DNA of 11,925 nucleotides from a virus (lineage: Duplodnaviria > Heunggongvirae > Uroviricota > Caudoviricetes), in the IMG/VR virus record IMGVR_UViG_2778261461_000004, one strand, 5' to 3'. The notes below the pieces were generated by a model that was given only the letters and a program-made list of their open reading frames with translations, searched no databases and was not told the DNA's origin. The translations under genes and the position numbers were made by a program. How positions within the stretch are numbered: position 1 is the first letter of the stretch; every line of letters starts with the position of its first letter. Below, in pieces: positions 3,309-11,393 of the stretch.

Positions 3309-3745
3309 CTACGGCAGTGCTGGCCATTCAATATCCTGTGCAGTTGACGTATCAACACGGTTCAGCAATACCCGATACTTTTTCCATGCTTCCAGCAACG
3401 AGATTTCTTCCTCCGTTGCAATTTCCAGATCTGCAGCATCCTGAAGCGGCGCAATATGCTCACTGGCTACCTGCATCAGGTTGTTTTTTGTTTCTTCCGC
3501 CTCCCGGATCCGGAACAGTTTTTCTGCTTCCGTATCCTTCACCCAGGCTGTGCCGTTCCACTTCTGAAACTCCCCTTCCGGCGATAACCAGGTAACATTT
3601 TCCGGTAACGGACCGAGTTCAGAAATAAATAACGCGTCGCCGGAAGCCACGTCATAGACGGTTTTTCCCCGATGATCTTCAACGAGATGCCACGATGCCT
3701 CATCACTGTTGAAAACAGCCACGAAGCCTGCCGGAATATCTGGCG
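3309..3745 (-). pseudogene. tfaQ: Tail fibre assembly protein (Tfa) remnant, 5'-truncated
   Basis: Translation from [35 protein letters not shown] to DIEWPALP matches the C-terminal roughly 140 residues of lambda-type Tfa proteins. The N-terminal ~55 residues are absent and in-frame stop codons lie immediately upstream. No ATG is available; the track's start is a GTG at 3722 that corresponds to an internal Val of intact Tfa. Confidence 0.8.
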
Positions 3746-5086
3746 GTGCAATACCCAGTCTGATTCTGTCGCCGCTCCACCACGAATCTGAATTTTCCAG
3801 GCCTCAGCCTCCTTAACAGGGTCAATCCACGGCATCACTGGTCCGGAATACACCGCGGTATACAGTGAAGAACGGTCAAGATCGCGGGGTAACCTGATAA
3901 CACCGGATGCCACAGCCTGTTTCAGCCATGCACGATACATCGGGCGGGTTACGGCACCAATAAACCAGTCCTGCAGGATCAGGTAGCCATCAGTAGACTC
4001 AACCAGTTCCTGACGCTGGGCGCTGTAAGTGCCGTTATAGTTTCGTGCCGTACTGGAAAAACTCAGACGACTGCCCGCCGCCACGGCACGCAACTGACCA
4101 TTACGAAAAGTTTCAAGGTTAGGATTGGGACGATCCGACTTCACCATTCCGATTTCTTCGCCGGGTTTCAGATCGTCGTAAATAATGCCTGGCTGAATGG
4201 TAAGCTCGCGTTCATTCTCCTTGCTGTCATTACCATCCGTTTCATAGCTCTGTCCGTCGCCTTTCCGGATGTACATCCCCAGAGCAGCGGCGATCCTTGC
4301 TGCAGTCAGCTCAGAATCTTCATACTCTTTCAGGGCGCTGAGGCGGATCAGCACACCGGACAATAAAGACGTCCCGCGCATCTGGTGCAGACGGCGAACA
4401 AATTTAAGATGCAGCATTCGCTCTGCATCCACTTCTTTGGTTTCCATCTGCCGTCCGGATACAGGACGACTTTTATACACCAGATATTTTTCGGGACGCC
4501 CCCAGTCATCAACAAACACGCCCTGATTCAGCCTGTTGCTCTCATCACTGGTCATGGGAATAAAGTCCGGCTCGAGCGCCTCCAGCCAGAAATGAACACC
4601 GGCAGAAGGCGTCAGGCTGTTTATGCGCCCGGAAACCATCTGGGCAAACACCTCACCATCGCGCAGCCAGGTACGCAGCATCAGACGTTCCAGCATCGGA
4701 CGGGTAAACTGCCCGGTGACTTCCGGACTGACAGACCATTCACTCCATCGGGTGCGTATCTCCGCTGCCAGGTCACGGGCAATGGCACCATTGCGTAATA
4801 CCGGATGTGGCTCGACAATAATCCCGTTTTTCCCCACCACCCGTTCTTCCAGCTTGTCAAATACACCAATGACCAGATCGTGGTTGTTATCAAGGTAACG
4901 GGCCTGCTCACGTAACGACACGGCCCCGTACTGGCTTAACTGGTCGGCAGTTCGGTTCTCCCGTCGGGCTTTGTGTGTCCGCGTCGTTTTTACGGCCTCA
5001 TAAGCCTGGATCACCGCTCGGGAACGCAGCCTTGCCGCTTTCCATCCTGGTGAAAAAACGCCAATCACATCATCAAGAATTGCCAT
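3746..5086 (-). pseudogene. Phage portal protein (lambda gpB-like family), 3'-truncated and read through into out-of-frame tfa sequence
   Basis: The track ORF 3539..5158 contains a portal-like sequence from MAILDDVIGVFSPGWKAARLRSRAVIQAYEAVK onward, with the ATG at 5084..5086 overlapping the gpW-like stop (TGATG). About 447 codons are portal-native, against roughly 500-540 for intact homologs. The last ~70 codons of the track ORF are tfa DNA read in another frame. Confidence 0.7.
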
Positions 5087-5298
5087 CAGAACCTCGCCAG
5101 CCGGTACCCGGGATGCCCCCGTCGTCGTGTAATCAGAGCCGCAAGGCGGCGCTCCCACTCCTGCCGCCCCTGCCGGATCTCAGATAAGTTTTCCATGGTC
5201 ATCTGCTGACCATTAAAAGTGACGGATTTTCCGTCCAGCACCGCCATTTCAGCTTCCGTATAACGCTGAATCATGGCTTCAATATCATTCTGATTCAT
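5086..5298 (-). CDS. Head-tail joining / head completion protein, gpW-like
   Basis: 70-aa protein (MNQNDIEAMIQRYTEAEMAVLDGKSVTFNGQQMTMENLSEIRQGRQEWERRLAALITRRRGHPGYRLARF) between terminase large subunit and portal, as in lambda A-W-B order. The C-terminal RRRG.PG motif resembles lambda gpW. The ATG at 5298 overlaps the TerL stop as ATGA, with GGAGG 6 nt upstream. Confidence 0.6.
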   Translation of the reverse strand: MNQNDIEAMIQRYTEAEMAVLDGKSVTFNGQQMTMENLSEIRQGRQEWERRLAALITRRRGHPGYRLARF

Positions 5299-7397
5299 AA
5301 CCATCCTCCGGAAGTCAGCCAGGGGTTAACATCGTCAGTTACTGTTTTCTTCCGTTTTTGTTTTTTAACAGGCGTGGATACCGGTTCCGGTGTGGGTGAC
5401 GGTTCGGTGCTGTCCGGGACACACTCCAGCCAGGTTTCCCGGCTCGCCCACTCCGGTGCATCCGGCCAGCGGATCTTTTCGTATCCATGCAGAATGACCA
5501 GAGCCTCGGCATACACCATCAGGTCAAAAGCTTCGTTGGCACCGCGACCCGGCTTACTCCATTTCCCGTCACTGCTCCGCTCTTCATACGTCAGTTCGTC
5601 GTAAAACCAGCTCCCCAGCCAGTCAGGGAAATGCACATAGCCGGGACCTGGCGAGTCACGCCATAACGCGTTATTCACCCGGTCTTTCAGGGCATCCGTC
5701 TGAAGAAGCCAGAGCGGTACATCACCTGCGGCCTGCGCCCGTCGGCCCGTTCGTCCGGTGTTATCAGGGAATGTACGGGTGATCAGTTTTGCGCGCCGGA
5801 TGCTGTCGCCCTTAAACAGGTAAATACGTTTACCAAGGCCATCACGACGGCAACGACGCCAGAATTTATAGGCATTATCAGTGACCCCGTCTTCACCGCC
5901 GGAGTCCACCGCCATTGCCATCAGTCGTATTTGTTGAGAAGGATCGGAGGCCAGCGGCCAGCTTTTATGAAAAACATCCGTCAGCAGGACATCCCAGTCT
6001 TCCGGATAGCTGGCCGGATCAATTCGCTGGCTCTCCCCGTCGCTGTCACCGCGCAATGACTGCGTGATGTTGTAACGATCAATAATCCAGCGTTCGCCAC
6101 GGCTGCCATAGCCCGTTACCTGAACCACAAAACGGCGATGACGTCCCGCCTGCACATCCACTGTCGCCACAAGGAAATTAACGCCATCCGGCACACTGCG
6201 GGAAGGAACTGGCTCTGCCCGCTGCTCAAGCAGTTCACTTTTTCGTTGCTCCATGCTGGCGCGGGGAAGATAAGGTAATCCCCAGTCGGTATTGATAACC
6301 GTCTTGAGTGTTTCTTCACTTCCGGTTGTCTCGTATTCCTGTTCTGCAGTAAGCAGTTTGTAAACGAGTTGCGAGAGTGTCTGGTAAGCAGCTGCCGGAC
6401 CCTCCATCCAGAATGACGCAATACGTGAACGCCTGGGATCACCATAACGACTGCCATCCGCATTGATGGATTCACCATCCCGCAACCAGACCCCACGTCC
6501 GTTCAGCTCACGTTTTTGTTCAGGCATAATCCGTCCTGAACAGAAAGGACACTGAATATAAGCCGCCTCACTTGCCAGCACGGGATCGGCAATATCACGG
6601 AAACCAGCAACCACATCGCCGCAGGGCTGAAAATACTCACCACAGTGTGGACATGGCCAGTACCAGCGACGGCGATCACCACGGTTATAGAGCGACAGGA
6701 TCCCCGTGGTTGGTGGAGCCTCATGCGGTGAAGTCCGTCGCCATTTCACATCCTTCACATCCCTGCCGGGGGAACTCTCCACCAGCGTCATACCGCTGGA
6801 CATAAATGTGGTGGTACGTTTTGAGGCAAGAGAGAAGGCATCCCCCTCGCCATCAATATCTTCCGGAAAACGGTCATAATCCGTCAGCGCGACGCATTTA
6901 TAATCTGATGAGGACATGATATTGACTGACGGCCAGCCGATTTTCAGGTAGTTGCCAGCAAGGAATGTTCTGTCATAAACGTTGTTGTCATTTTTGTTCG
7001 GACTCAGGCGACTGACCACTTCCGGGCTGACGCGAAACGTTCTGGCGAGTCGTTTTTTGGAGTGTTCGCGGGCTTTTTCCTCTGTCATCTGAATGATCAG
7101 CATATCCGCAGGATCGCAAATCACGTTGTAAATCACCCAGCCGTCAATCAGGCCGATAGTCTTGCCGGTTCGTGCCGGGCCAACAAATATCACTGCGTCG
7201 TATTCACGCGAGGCCAGGCAGTTCATAGGCTCAATAACATACGGTGCCACCAGCGGATCCCACGGGACTGAGTTCCCTGCCCCCATGGGCACCCGCATAT
7301 ACTGAGCAACGGCATCAGCAACCCGCATTCGTCTCGGTGCGCGAAGGATATAACCTGAATCGGTTCGTGCTGCCTTTGCGGTTTCCTGATTCAGCAT
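5295..7397 (-). CDS. Terminase large subunit (lambda gpA family)
   Basis: 700-aa ORF with a Walker A-like motif VGPARTGKT near the N-terminus, directly downstream of a Nu1-like small subunit. Strong RBS GGAGGAG upstream. The start overlaps the TerS stop (TAATG). Confidence 0.9.
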   Translation of the reverse strand: MLNQETAKAARTDSGYILRAPRRMRVADAVAQYMRVPMGAGNSVPWDPLVAPYVIEPMNCLASREYDAVIFVGPARTGKTIGLIDGWVIYNVICDPADMLIIQMTEEKAREHSKKRLARTFRVSPEVVSRLSPNKNDNNVYDRTFLAGNYLKIGWPSVNIMSSSDYKCVALTDYDRFPEDIDGEGDAFSLASKRTTTFMSSGMTLVESSPGRDVKDVKWRRTSPHEAPPTTGILSLYNRGDRRRWYWPCPHCGEYFQPCGDVVAGFRDIADPVLASEAAYIQCPFCSGRIMPEQKRELNGRGVWLRDGESINADGSRYGDPRRSRIASFWMEGPAAAYQTLSQLVYKLLTAEQEYETTGSEETLKTVINTDWGLPYLPRASMEQRKSELLEQRAEPVPSRSVPDGVNFLVATVDVQAGRHRRFVVQVTGYGSRGERWIIDRYNITQSLRGDSDGESQRIDPASYPEDWDVLLTDVFHKSWPLASDPSQQIRLMAMAVDSGGEDGVTDNAYKFWRRCRRDGLGKRIYLFKGDSIRRAKLITRTFPDNTGRTGRRAQAAGDVPLWLLQTDALKDRVNNALWRDSPGPGYVHFPDWLGSWFYDELTYEERSSDGKWSKPGRGANEAFDLMVYAEALVILHGYEKIRWPDAPEWASRETWLECVPDSTEPSPTPEPVSTPVKKQKRKKTVTDDVNPWLTSGGWL

Positions 7398-7891
7398 TAC
7401 TCCTCCTGCTGTAATTCCTCCTCATCATCCGCACCTGCTTCAGTCACCCGCAGGGCTATCTGATCGCGCAGATCATCAATAATGGACTGAACACGGCTCA
7501 CAGCGGCAGGCTGCAGACCGCAGTCACGTTCAAGAATATCCGGTAATGTCTCCAGCACCTGCACGACCGCTTTTGCCCAGATGGCAAACTCCCGTCTGAC
7601 ATCACTGGCCGGAATGAGTTGTGCCGTTTCCTGTTCGAACTTAAGACGCTCACGTTCAGACTGATACCAGGCTTTGCGCTCATGCGCGTCCATTTCGCCT
7701 TCTGCAACCGGCGGTGGTAATGCCAGAAATGCCGACACAATATCAACCACCCGATAAAGCTTGAGGTTGCTTTCATGCCCCCCTGCAACGGGTAGATTTT
7801 GCAGCCTTGCCGCAGCAGTCTGGCGATGTACACCTGACAATGCCGCCAGTTGACTGATATTCAGCGTCAGATTTTTTAACTCTCGATCCAT
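7397..7891 (-). CDS. nohA: Terminase small subunit, Nu1-like (NohA/NohD family)
   Basis: 164-aa ORF. The N-terminus NLTLNISQLAALSGVHRQTAAARL is HTH-like, as in Nu1-type DNA-binding small subunits. The C-terminus is acidic (EAGADDEEELQQEE). It sits about 180 bp downstream of the cos-like sequence, with GGAG upstream of the ATG. Confidence 0.8.
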   Translation of the reverse strand: MDRELKNLTLNISQLAALSGVHRQTAAARLQNLPVAGGHESNLKLYRVVDIVSAFLALPPPVAEGEMDAHERKAWYQSERERLKFEQETAQLIPASDVRREFAIWAKAVVQVLETLPDILERDCGLQPAAVSRVQSIIDDLRDQIALRVTEAGADDEEELQQEE

Positions 7892-8039
7892 ACCCGCTCC
7901 AGAATGTTTTAAACATGCATCTTGCGAACAACTTTAGGCAAACGGTGTTAGCGATGAACAAAAAACAATCAGAATCGACACCATAAAAATAAAACCACTG
8001 TAATACCAATCAATTACAGTAGTGGTGATGACGAATAAA

Positions 8040-8112
8040 ATTTCAAAAACTAGCCTTTTTCCGCGACGCTCCCGCCCCGTGGCAGGGACCCCCACTGGGA
8101 GGACCCGACAGC
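8040..8112 (-). other. Candidate cos site (cosN-like core about 8061..8082, with adjacent cosB-like sequence toward terS)
   Basis: Read on the minus strand the sequence is CCACGGGGCGGGAGCGTCGCGGAAAAAGGC...GAAATTTTATTCGTCAT. This resembles, from memory, lambda cosN (GGGCGGCGACCTCGCGGG) and the downstream GAAAATTTT and TTCGTCAT elements. Position relative to the terS start is about the same as cosN to Nu1 in lambda (~190 bp). Confidence 0.5.
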
Positions 8113-8443
8113 CTGACAACCGTGACGAGCATCTGAAACAGAGCTTTACATAATGGCATGGGGATAATTCAGAAGGACATCACAGCATGCCCACACAAAT
8201 TAGTGTGAGTGTCCTGTTTCTTACTACGCGCAGGACTGACGAGCATGAGGGGAAAATACGCGAACCGAAATGCCTTATCTTCAGAAATGCAGCCGGCATC
8301 CGAACTGGACGATATTGTAAATTCACCTAAATACGAGGCATTGCTGTAGTTGAATTGCAGTACTGTATTAGCCTTACAGTGACAGAATACGATATTGACT
8401 CTGTCACTTGTGAAATGGTCAGAATGGTTAGCAGTTATGGTGA

Positions 8444-8650
8444 TCAGTCAACCACCAGGGAATAATCCTTCGTATTCTTATCGTGCTTTACTAACGCGGC
8501 CTCAATTGCCCTGAATGCTTCCAGAGATACTTGATGTTCTATACATGCAATTACAACATCCGGGTAACCCATCGAAATGGTGCTATTAAGCATAGTTTTT
8601 ACACGAACCTGCTCCTGGGAGGGGGCATCAGTGTATTGATCTTTATGCAT
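8444..8650 (-). CDS. Hypothetical 68-aa prophage protein, possibly DUF3950 (YlcI/YnfO-like) family
   Basis: [71 protein letters not shown] with GGAG 7 nt upstream of the ATG. Family assignment is from recollection only and is uncertain. Confidence 0.55.
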
Positions 8651-8857
8651 TTTGTCGCTCCATTCGTTTGCTCTTCACTTGCGGCCAAAAATATAACGTC
8701 AAATCACTCAGCATGAAAGAGTGAAAGTTTCAGCGCGTTTCCCTTACATAATCTGTCGTTTGTATTCTCTTCAGGCATACCGGAAAGACTAGGTATTGTC
8801 ACATAACCAATACCATCGACAATCGAGATTTATATCTATTCGGTAATGTTTAAATAT

Positions 8858-8880
8858 AAAAAAACCCCGTAAAAACGAGG
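8858..8880 (-). terminator. Rho-independent terminator downstream of gnsB
   Basis: On the minus strand: stem CCUCGU / ACGGGG (with one G-U pair), a short U-rich loop, then a run of 7 U. Located 65-90 nt downstream of the gnsB stop. Confidence 0.55.
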
Positions 8881-8945
8881 TTTATGGGTAATTTGTATTG
8901 TTGAATAGCATCTGATGAGAAATTGATGCTAATACTATAAACATG

Positions 8946-9119
8946 CTAGATTAAATCAATCTTGATATCATAGCTTTCAAGACCAGTCATTTTTTCCCGT
9001 GCAGTAAACTGGATACTGGTAACTTCTTTCCCGGTCTTTTTCTTAAGCTCAATGATTTTTTTTGTTATATATTCAGAAATATCTGCTTCTGTTTTTGTTT
9101 TTAACTCTTCAATGTTCAT
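8946..9119 (-). CDS. gnsB: Gns family protein (GnsA/GnsB)
   Basis: 57-aa translation MNIEELKTKTEADISEYITKKIIELKKKTGKEVTSIQFTAREKMTGLESYDIKIDLI matches the Gns family. AAGAGGAA lies upstream of the ATG at 9119 (alternative ATG at 9122). The track's longer 88-aa start at 9212 is not supported by an RBS. Confidence 0.8.
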   Translation of the reverse strand: MNIEELKTKTEADISEYITKKIIELKKKTGKEVTSIQFTAREKMTGLESYDIKIDLI

Positions 9120-9291
9120 CATTTCCTCTTTTAGTCTGTTATGACTGTCCTGGTACACAGTAGTGTCAATTATATGGAGCAAACGTATAAAAGATAAGAT
9201 GAAACATCGCAATAATCAACATACGACGGTCTAAATTTCACACAAACAGATAAAGATGATTATCATTTATTATCAATGCATTAGAATCAAA

Positions 9292-9522
9292 TCAATTCAA
9301 GAGTCTCATTGCTGCTTCCAGAATTTCTTCTGAAGTTACATGTCGATCCGCTGCTACATAAATGACTTTATGATCTCCGGTCAGAGATGGAAACCCTGCG
9401 GCCATTACAGTAAGGTGTGTTTTTTCGCCATTTGGATATTCACGCATGATGGTGTTAACTCCAGTCATCGCTGGCACTACCACTGCTGGTTCAGAGTTAA
9501 AAAAAACTATGATTTTTTTCAT
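9292..9522 (-). CDS. Hypothetical 76-aa protein (possibly YnfN-like, by position)
   Basis: ORF MKKIIVFFNSEPAVVVPAMTGVNTIMREYPNGEKTHLTVMAAGFPSLTGDHKVIYVAADRHVTSEEILEAAMRLLN from the ATG at 9522. The track's extension to 9564 starts at a TTG inside a terminator. Weak RBS. Lies between gnsB and cspI, as ynfN does in K-12 Qin by my recollection. Confidence 0.5.
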   Translation of the reverse strand: MKKIIVFFNSEPAVVVPAMTGVNTIMREYPNGEKTHLTVMAAGFPSLTGDHKVIYVAADRHVTSEEILEAAMRLLN

Positions 9523-9565
9523 GATGTTACCGTAGTATGTGAGTATCCATCGAATAGATACCAAG

Positions 9566-9587
9566 CAAAAAAGCTCCCGAAGGAGCC
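9566..9587 (-). terminator. Rho-independent terminator with UUCG tetraloop
   Basis: On the minus strand: GGCUCC-UUCG-GGAGCU followed by UUUUUU. The plus-strand A-run makes it potentially bidirectional. About 200 nt downstream of the cspI stop. Confidence 0.6.
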
Positions 9588-9793
9588 TTCATTTTCACTT
9601 TTTTAAATCCAACGACAGACGGCTGGCATTTAAGTATTGTGAAATATTATCAAATGTAATCATCATTGATTTACAAAAGATACATTTTGCCCCGAAAGGA
9701 TTCATGTCAGAAACATCAAAAGATGATGTTCTATACTGGGAACCATGACAACACGGGCATCTAAAGTGAATATGGTTTGTAATATTGTCTACC

Positions 9794-10006
9794 TCAAAGC
9801 GCCACTACATGAACAGCGGCAGGACCTTTAGGTCCGTTCTCAATACCAAATTCAACTTCCTGATTCTCAGTTAATGTTTTGAAATCGTTGCTCTGAATTG
9901 CTGAGAAATGGACAAACACATCTTTGCTGCCATCTTTCGGCGTGATGAAACCAAAACCTTTTTCAGGGTTAAACCATTTCACTAAACCAGTCATTTTGTT
10001 AGACAT
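9794..10006 (-). CDS. cspI: Cold shock protein, CspA family
   Basis: 70-aa [73 protein letters not shown] with RNP1-like KGFGFI and RNP2-like VFVHF motifs. AAGG RBS upstream. Followed upstream by a long untranslated region, as is typical of csp genes. Confidence 0.9.
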
Positions 10007-10369
10007 AATTATTACCTTTTGAAGAAATTAGCCCTTGGGCAGAATGGTCCGAAAAAAAATATCAGAGAGAAAAACCAACAAGGAAATCTCAAGAGGTACA
10101 AATAATAAAATTATAACAATGACTGCTTCAGATAAATTTGTAACAAACCAGAACACCATTAACGCATGATTAACCACCCATAGCAAGGATTACTTTTGTA
10201 AAGAAAAACACAGCAATGAAAGAATAGCTTTATTTATTAATAATAACGTGTCATTCTGATTAAGACCTTTTATCTTACCCTTAAGATTTCAGGAATTTTG
10301 GCTCATGGAAGAGTCCTTTTTATTTAAATTTTACATTCCGCGATGTAAATGTTCCGATTTAATATTACC

Positions 10370-11393
<1,024 letters not shown>

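Follow-up and report, generated by a model that had tools for sequence, protein, structure and literature searches.

The packaging genes of phage lambda (Nu1-A-W-B) follow its cos site in the order small terminase subunit (terS), large terminase subunit (terL), small adaptor and portal, and are joined by overlapping stop and start codons; the lambdoid phages mEp460, Ayreon, phi458 and cdtI carry packaging genes of a Gifsy-2-like kind. Here we describe an Escherichia coli locus that shares the lambda order and the overlaps. It lies in an 11,925-nucleotide (nt) stretch of DNA (IMG/VR record IMGVR_UViG_2778261461_000004, referred to as the window), which covers the right half of an mEp460/cdtI-type lambdoid prophage at the Qin (ydfJ) locus and, along its whole length, differs from E. 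coli strain C1 at a single nucleotide. Across terS, terL, the W-like gene and portal the window shares 96–98.7% nucleotide identity with phage records that include mEp460, Ayreon, phi458 and vB_EcoS-569R4, but mEp460, Ayreon, phi458 and cdtI are complete phage genomes whereas in the window a deletion has taken out 18.5 kb of head and tail genes. A preliminary description of this DNA remarked on the intactness of its packaging module (5086–7891) and attributed it either to a recent deletion or to selection for retention. The comparisons below point to the former, and it is very likely that the module is whole because the 18.5-kb deletion is very recent and has left too little time for decay.

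The window occupies the Qin (ydfJ) prophage locus, between ydfJ′-ydfK-pinQ and essD, and we take its chromosomal site within the truncated ydfJ gene to be that of the Qin cryptic prophage of E. coli K-12. Qin and the strain C1 prophage have in common the flanking genes ydfK, pinQ, tfaQ, gnsB, ynfN, cspI, rzpQ, rrrQ, ydfR and essD. The packaging content of K-12 Qin is presumably limited to a Nu1-type terS homologue (nohA) adjoining a truncated tail-fibre gene, and terL, W and portal are not known from it; it would thus be an older remnant, with a different packaging module and a different course of decay. At the same site in strains XH988 and AMSCJX03 there is a full-length prophage with a complete late region, which from portal to tfaQ encodes a 502-residue portal, a fusion of a ClpP-like protease to the major capsid protein, the tail genes, J, Lom and a tail fibre. 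In this the parent phage departs from lambda, which has C, Nu3, D and E in place of the fusion.

Alignment with the XH988 locus defines the deletion exactly. Window bases up to 3753, on the tfa–pinQ side, correspond to positions 1–1457 of the XH988 locus with no mismatches, and those from 3752 onwards correspond to positions 20001–24610 with one mismatch in 4,610 bp, such that 18,543 bp are absent from the window and the two sides share 2 bp, TA, at the junction (3752–3753). There, portal nt 1335 is joined to nt 132 of the tail-fibre assembly gene. The portal remnant (3752–5086, minus strand) retains codons 1–445 of 502 and matches Phage_portal_2 (E 5e-82) and TIGR01539 portal_lambda (E 6e-126); it is a lambda-family portal, and the only one of the window packaging proteins named by NCBIfam profiles. 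It diverges from the XH988 portal at residue 446 and reads out of frame to 3539. On the other side are the 3′ 445 nt of the tail-fibre assembly gene tfaQ (3309–3753, minus strand; Caudo_TAP, E 1.4e-43), annotated as a partial gene in strain C1 and 100% identical to XH988. The loss of all structural genes that had been reported for this element is thus an overstatement. We propose that one illegitimate recombination event at the 2-bp TA microhomology deleted the 18.5 kb from portal codon 445 to nt 132 of the tail-fibre assembly gene; such an event would have removed the capsid, tail and tail-fibre genes, and would have left cosQ-cosN-cosB, terS, terL, the W-like gene and most of portal untouched because these lie outside the deleted span. 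Because the Pin invertase gene pinQ is adjacent, a Pin-mediated deletion was also considered; no Pin crossover site was recognised by eye at the junction, where no scan was made and where the microhomology is only 2 bp.

The junction also creates a 515-residue chimeric open reading frame (ORF; 3539–5086, minus strand) in which portal codons 1–445 are followed by 70 out-of-frame codons that run through the tfa remnant. Some pipelines call this ORF as a protein, and it is a convenient exact marker of the deletion lineage.

The deletion is rare and its carriers are nearly identical. Among 5,426 complete genomes, three contain the exact junction; strains C1, TST3 and TBE6 belong to this lineage. 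In a 5,001-bp comparison, only 1 nt set six sampled carriers apart from the window. Throughout cos, terS, terL, W and portal the sole difference from XH988 is a T at window position 5928 where XH988 has C, which changes TerL residue 490 from methionine to isoleucine (M490I). This I490 allele was recovered (as P0121) by a word-indexed search for TerL homologues that returned only proteins at least 99% identical; 107 contigs carry it, and 91 carry the chimeric portal ORF. All of the 24 I490 contigs that were read have the deleted architecture, and the allele was found only with the deletion. The carriers are one shallow lineage. Even if the whole per-site divergence of 2.2e-4 is taken as having arisen after the deletion, about 0.6 substitutions are expected in the 2.8-kb module. 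Only about one in 20 random substitutions creates a stop codon, and insertions and deletions occur several-fold less often than substitutions; the expected number of ORF-breaking events since the deletion is thus below 0.1, and the intactness of the module needs no selection to explain it.

Other strains show that deletions of this kind arise repeatedly at the Qin locus, and that all of them are young. An independent deletion in strain H2, with an AA microhomology, joins portal nt 1263 to the terminal 137 nt of tfa; one nucleotide separates the H2 module from that of the intact prophage in AMSCJX03, and it is AMSCJX03, not H2, that has the derived residue. In QDFD216, MIN9 and 50EVAW there is an ISEc31 element at portal nt 1176, and the module is 0 nt from XH988. 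An exhaustive representative search further recovered TerL fusion ORFs with N-termini 94–100% identical to the window TerL that then run into other sequence: residues 1–523 are joined to tail protein L sequence, 1–468 in frame to the portal C-terminus, 1–430 to capsid sequence, 1–396 to J sequence, and 1–340, 1–320, 1–210 and 1–199 to other sequence. Most of these ORFs are on 1–10 contigs, and one is on 87, making it about as common as the window lineage. A remnant at the dusA site in AR434 keeps a portal fragment, and terS, terL and W are gone. The terL gene is therefore not protected in the population. Comparison of terL alleles gives 20 synonymous against 5 nonsynonymous codon differences, a pattern of purifying selection in the phages and not in the remnant. 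No dN/dS value can be estimated for the remnant itself, with 0–1 substitutions since the deletion and the one nonsynonymous, and persistence in deeply diverged hosts with purifying selection after the deletion, as would mark a domesticated module, was not found. Of the two explanations first offered for the intact module, a recent deletion thus agrees with 1 nt of difference in 4,610 bp and with the occurrence in three of 5,426 genomes, and selection for retention fares poorly given the truncation or loss of terL elsewhere.

The module consists of three open minus-strand frames, which we confirm to be uninterrupted: terS (7397–7891, 164 residues), terL (5295–7397, 700 residues) and a W-like head-tail adaptor gene (5086–5298, 70 residues), the positional counterpart of lambda gpW. 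All three overlaps listed in the preliminary description can be read directly from the sequence. The terS/terL junction is GAG TAATG CTG (overlap TAATG), the terL/W junction is TGG TTATGA ATC (ATGA), and the W/portal junction is TTC TGATG GCA (TGATG). The second of these places the start of the W-like gene at its second ATG (5298), from which it is counted here; a mechanical ORF list begins it two codons earlier, at 5304. The third couples the W-like gene to the portal remnant, whose start at 5086 is outside the range first considered. Each start is also preceded by a GGAG- or GAGG-like Shine-Dalgarno sequence, in line with the good ribosome-binding sites noted before: GGAG 5 nt before the terS ATG, AGGAGGAG 2–4 nt before the terL start, GGAGG 6 nt upstream of the W-like gene, and GAGG 5 nt upstream of portal. 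Coupling and ribosome-binding sites alike are the normal layout of this late operon in working phages, inherited unchanged.

Assignment of these genes to packaging is borne out by profile searches, with TerL matching GpA_ATPase and GpA_nuclease, TerS matching PHROG 141, and the W-like protein matching PHROG 118. The TerL match to Pfam GpA_ATPase (PF05876) has E 3e-71 and 240 bits (cut-off 25.6) over profile positions 2–247 of 247, that to GpA_nuclease (PF20454) has E 3e-85 and 286 bits (cut-off 22.5) over positions 1–294 of 294, and PHROG 15 is matched with 1064 bits; a 700-codon ORF with two full-length Pfam domains is far beyond chance. A C-terminal tail that is predicted to be disordered (residues 663–700) follows the two domains. 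The AlphaFold 2 (AF2) model of TerL is a confident two-domain structure with a mean predicted local distance difference test (pLDDT) score of 88, and searches of the PDB by sequence with TerL, TerS and the W-like protein gave no meaningful match and no solved structure of this TerL. The window protein differs from mEp460 TerL by three residues. Lambda gpA has the same ATPase and nuclease domains, but the two proteins are only 24% identical (E 2e-18), and the Walker A motif is GPARTGKT in the window and KSARVGYS in lambda. The Walker A-like motif noticed earlier is therefore a canonical one, at residues 73–80. In a family alignment of 33 TerL members (24–86% identity) its lysine, K79, is common to 32 of the 33, the exception being lambda gpA, and D414, D498, E622 and D625 are invariant in all 33; every one of these residues is present in the window TerL. 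At position 490, where the window has isoleucine, the other 32 members have methionine (27) or leucine (5). We note that I490 sits in a beta-strand that ends at the invariant D498.

The small subunit and the adaptor are more distant from their lambda counterparts. TerS matches Pfam DUF1441 (E 2.7e-41, 141 bits) and PHROG 141, annotated as terminase small subunit (E 7e-74), and there are reciprocal cross-matches with the Nu1 family: TerS to PHROG 57, the Nu1 family (E 8e-10), and lambda Nu1 to PHROG 141 (E 5.6e-8). It is also directly upstream of terL and coupled to it by TAATG, and is to be classed as a small terminase distantly related to Nu1. Of the profiles proposed in the preliminary description, however, Phage_Nu1 (Pfam PF07471) is not matched by TerS even at E values up to 10, whereas lambda Nu1 itself scores 333 bits, and BLASTP of TerS against Nu1 gave no alignment. 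Residues 3–33 have weak matches to helix-turn-helix profiles (E 0.02–0.12), and the whole protein is identical to that of the full-length XH988 prophage. When window positions 7840–7925 are compared with mEp460, the 5′ end of terS in the phage has ACG where the window has ATG and a run of five A residues where the window has six, and an upstream ATG (MFKTFW…) is in frame, giving a TerS of 172 residues with the same core.

The W-like protein matches PHROG 118, annotated as head-tail adaptor (E 8.5e-37), whereas lambda gpW belongs to PHROG 75, and the Pfam gpW profile that had likewise been suggested (PF02831) is not matched even at E values up to 10; with DUF6148 there is a sub-threshold match only. 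BLASTP against lambda gpW gave no alignment, and an hhalign comparison with lambda W is weak (E 0.0047, probability 7%, 33 columns), covering a C-terminal helix and RRRG.PG[YF]. The AF2 model (pLDDT 79) has a helix, a beta-hairpin and a helix, which would match the topology of gpW, but fold searches with the model did not retrieve gpW. In lambda, too, an adaptor of about 70 residues is encoded between terL and portal, and an identical protein in mEp460 and cdtI is annotated as head-tail adaptor. We therefore label it a W-like adaptor by position and annotation, and regard it as a candidate rather than a proven member of the gpW family. The functional labels of both small proteins are kept on the strength of PHROG, DUF1441, position and phage annotation. 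A literature search on mEp460, DUF1441 and cdtI found incidental mentions only.

Upstream of terS there appears to be an intact cos site of the lambda type. A cosQ-like heptamer, GGGTCCT (8100–8106, minus strand), precedes the predicted nick by 22 nt, against 23 nt in lambda, and is also present in cdtI at near-equal spacing. By comparison with cdtI and lambda, cosN is predicted at 8066–8077 (minus strand), with a 12-nt cohesive end, GGGCGGGAGCGT, that has CG on both flanks. The minus strand here reads …CGGGTCCTCCCAGTGGGGGTCCCTGCCACG|GGGCGGGAGCGTCGCGG…, and the cdtI genome record begins exactly at GGGCGGGAGCGT, with its first 33 nt identical to the window and its last bases matching the left side. 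Compared with the lambda cohesive end, GGGCGGCGACCT, positions 1–6 are identical and positions 7, 8, 9 and 11 differ. Lambda also shares the cosQ heptamer GGGTCCT, the CG flanks and a similar distance from cosN to the terS ATG (186 nt in the window, 190 nt in lambda). Lambda-like cos phages, including Gifsy-1, are described as having a highly conserved 7-bp cosQ, left half and flanks, with a variable right half (Feiss et al. 2015, PMC4669245), and the window follows this pattern, its differences from lambda falling in the right half, where variation is tolerated.

The interval between cosN and terS (7892–8065, minus strand) is, from its position, the presumed cosB region, where TerS would bind. 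Within it, two 11-bp arms (ACTACTGTAAT…ATTACAGTGGT) form an inverted repeat (7994–8023, minus strand) that has a T-run after it; this repeat is flagged by a terminator scan and could be a TerS or IHF binding feature. Comparison of cdtI positions 1–800 with window positions 7300–8077 shows that the cosB stretch diverges in cdtI with cosQ and cosN unchanged. Phage cdtI also has a different TerS (179 residues) and a different TerL N-terminus (about 20 residues), and its TerL from residue 21, W and portal are 88–100% identical to those of the window. In lambda the TerL N-terminus works with TerS, which binds cosB, and the TerL C-terminus works with portal. The mosaic pattern of cdtI matches this domain map, and its boundary inside terL fits an exchange of a TerS/cosB specificity unit.

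The Pro/Lys-rich tail of TerL, which had been singled out before as unassigned, is indeed present at residues 665–700 (PSPTPEPVSTPVKKQKRKK…GGWL). It is identical in the mEp460 record and differs by one residue in cdtI, and so is not a product of decay. Residues 663–700 have pLDDT values below 50 and no secondary structure in the AF2 model, and the tail is predicted to be disordered. In the family comparison, which drew on the exhaustive representative search, all 33 members extend past a conserved W..PP.WA motif by 10–45 low-complexity residues rich in P, K, E, Q, S, T and R, and end in one of a few short motifs; the tail is therefore a normal feature of this TerL family. One class of ends is aromatic, W..G..W[LI], and includes NPWLTSGGWL in the window, NPWIRSGRGQWL, AWLGERKGWLKR and SWLPSLDNWIR; a second is L..LA..LG (SLAELAAKLG, TLEELAALLG); and a third is arginine-rich. 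Lambda TerL also extends past its nuclease domain, but its terminal motif, TLADYARALSGEDE (TLADYARALSG), differs from that of the window and resembles the second class. The C-terminus of lambda TerL is a prohead-binding domain, and a nonsense mutation at its fifth-to-last codon abolishes docking on portal (PMC4856287). By analogy with lambda gpA, the tail is most likely a flexible linker followed by a short portal-docking peptide.

Whether the cassette has any present activity bears on how its retention is understood. With the head genes and the immunity and replication region deleted, the element cannot be a working phage. The second of these losses is a separate large deletion in strain C1, outside the window (at about 26400–28600 of the C1 locus record), which fuses a partial hypothetical gene to a partial exonuclease gene. 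As in lambda, terS and terL would need Q-antiterminated late transcription to be expressed. A search of the minus strand upstream of terS gave no sigma-70-like promoter, and gnsB is followed by a terminator-like hairpin (8883–8862). Because no proheads are possible, the immunity and replication region is deleted and no promoter precedes terS, the remnant terminase is probably silent, functionless cargo.

Several points weigh against this account of a young deletion that has left an inert remnant. First, three independent deletion lineages all keep terS-terL-W. Secondly, their three endpoints, at portal nt 1176, 1263 and 1335 (window 3752–3911), fall within 160 bp of each other, and this clustering could hint at a hotspot or at selection. 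Thirdly, the silence of the terminase is something that we infer, and the portal-docking role of the tail is drawn from lambda by analogy only. As to the second point, a DNA query ranks records by their coverage of the window's own arrangement and so favours endpoints near 3752; the clustering is at least partly an effect of ascertainment. Given this, and the endpoints at TerL residues 199–523 in other lineages, we rejected a hotspot or selection as unproven.

The first of these points is also an argument that selection keeps cos-terS-terL-W, either for the packaging of the remnant and adjacent chromosome into the proheads of a helper or for cleaving the cos sites of incoming relatives. Such a role would be in keeping with a cosQ, cosN and cosB region that is intact with lambda-like spacing, with a TerL that has all of its catalytic and Walker residues, and with a lineage sampled on about 100 contigs. 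However, with 0–1 nt per 4.5 kb separating each of the three lineages from intact prophages, intactness is uninformative on selection, and deletions truncating terL are found in other lineages, one of them on 87 contigs. The only change within the window lineage is nonsynonymous, M490I, at a position that is otherwise methionine or leucine throughout the family; the promoter-like site and the hairpin are, respectively, lacking before terS and present after gnsB, and the early region of the prophage is gone in strain C1. We therefore consider selection for the cassette very unlikely.

A more specific proposal, and one that we hold to be very unlikely, is that the cassette still functions when a related lambdoid phage, resident or superinfecting, supplies Q antitermination and portal-compatible proheads. 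The terminase of the remnant or of the helper would then cut cosN (8077), and packaging would proceed one way toward pinQ, ydfK, ydfJ and beyond. If this were so, a defective prophage would be launching a cos-type counterpart of lateral transduction, or of the lambda 'doc' particles, and helper-driven packaging would give a reason for the repeated retention of the cassette.

It is very improbable that the element is instead a phage satellite, of the phage-inducible chromosomal island (PICI) or capsid-forming-PICI-like kind, with packaging genes of its own. Possession of cos, terS, terL and an adaptor without capsid or tail genes gives it a superficial likeness to satellites that redirect helper virions (background on PICIs in PMC9026076). 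Yet the locus aligns base for base with the full-length prophages that occupy this attachment site, from which it differs only by deletions with identifiable junctions; portal and tfa are visibly truncated, the flanks are ordinary Qin genes (among them essD, rrrQ, rzpQ, cspI, gnsB and pinQ), and the annotated region of strain C1 showed no satellite-specific genes. That the portal/tfa junction is an assembly artefact in a strain with a complete prophage is hardly credible, as only the general possibility of assembly collapse between repeated prophages speaks for it; three genomes that were finished independently share the junction, as do at least 24 contigs drawn from different assemblies and read sets.

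From the ydfJ side, the gene order in strain C1 is truncated ydfJ, ynfT, ydfK, pinQ, tfa′, portal′, W, terL and terS, followed by cos, a 68-residue ORF, gnsB, ynfN, cspI, rzpQ, rrrQ, ydfR and essD; this last, a holin gene, is named essQ in QDFD216. In strain C1 blc is interrupted by IS3, and in TST3 pinQ is additionally split by ISKpn26. The late region is a mosaic in composition, with a GC content of 33–38% across the gnsB, ynfN and cspI 'moron' block (window ~8500–10400) and 52–56% in the packaging genes. Upstream of cos, a zone of about 270 bp (window ~8358–8622) has been hit by three different insertion sequence (IS) elements, depending on the strain: IS3 at ~8358–8361 in XH988, IS1 at ~8400 in TST3 and TBE6, and an IS3-family element at ~8618–8622 in QDFD216. 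This zone may be insertion-tolerant or a preferred IS target.

Taken as a whole, the locus is of an ordinary and already known kind, a young deletion in a common and well-annotated lambdoid prophage, and it has little importance beyond annotation. The analysis also yields a precise map of the deletion and of an apparently intact cos site of the lambda type, corrected family assignments of terS and the W-like gene, and a family-wide view in which the TerL tail would be, by analogy, a linker with a docking peptide. The implication is that the age of the deletion has to be established before intact and translationally coupled genes in a prophage remnant are read as a sign of domestication.

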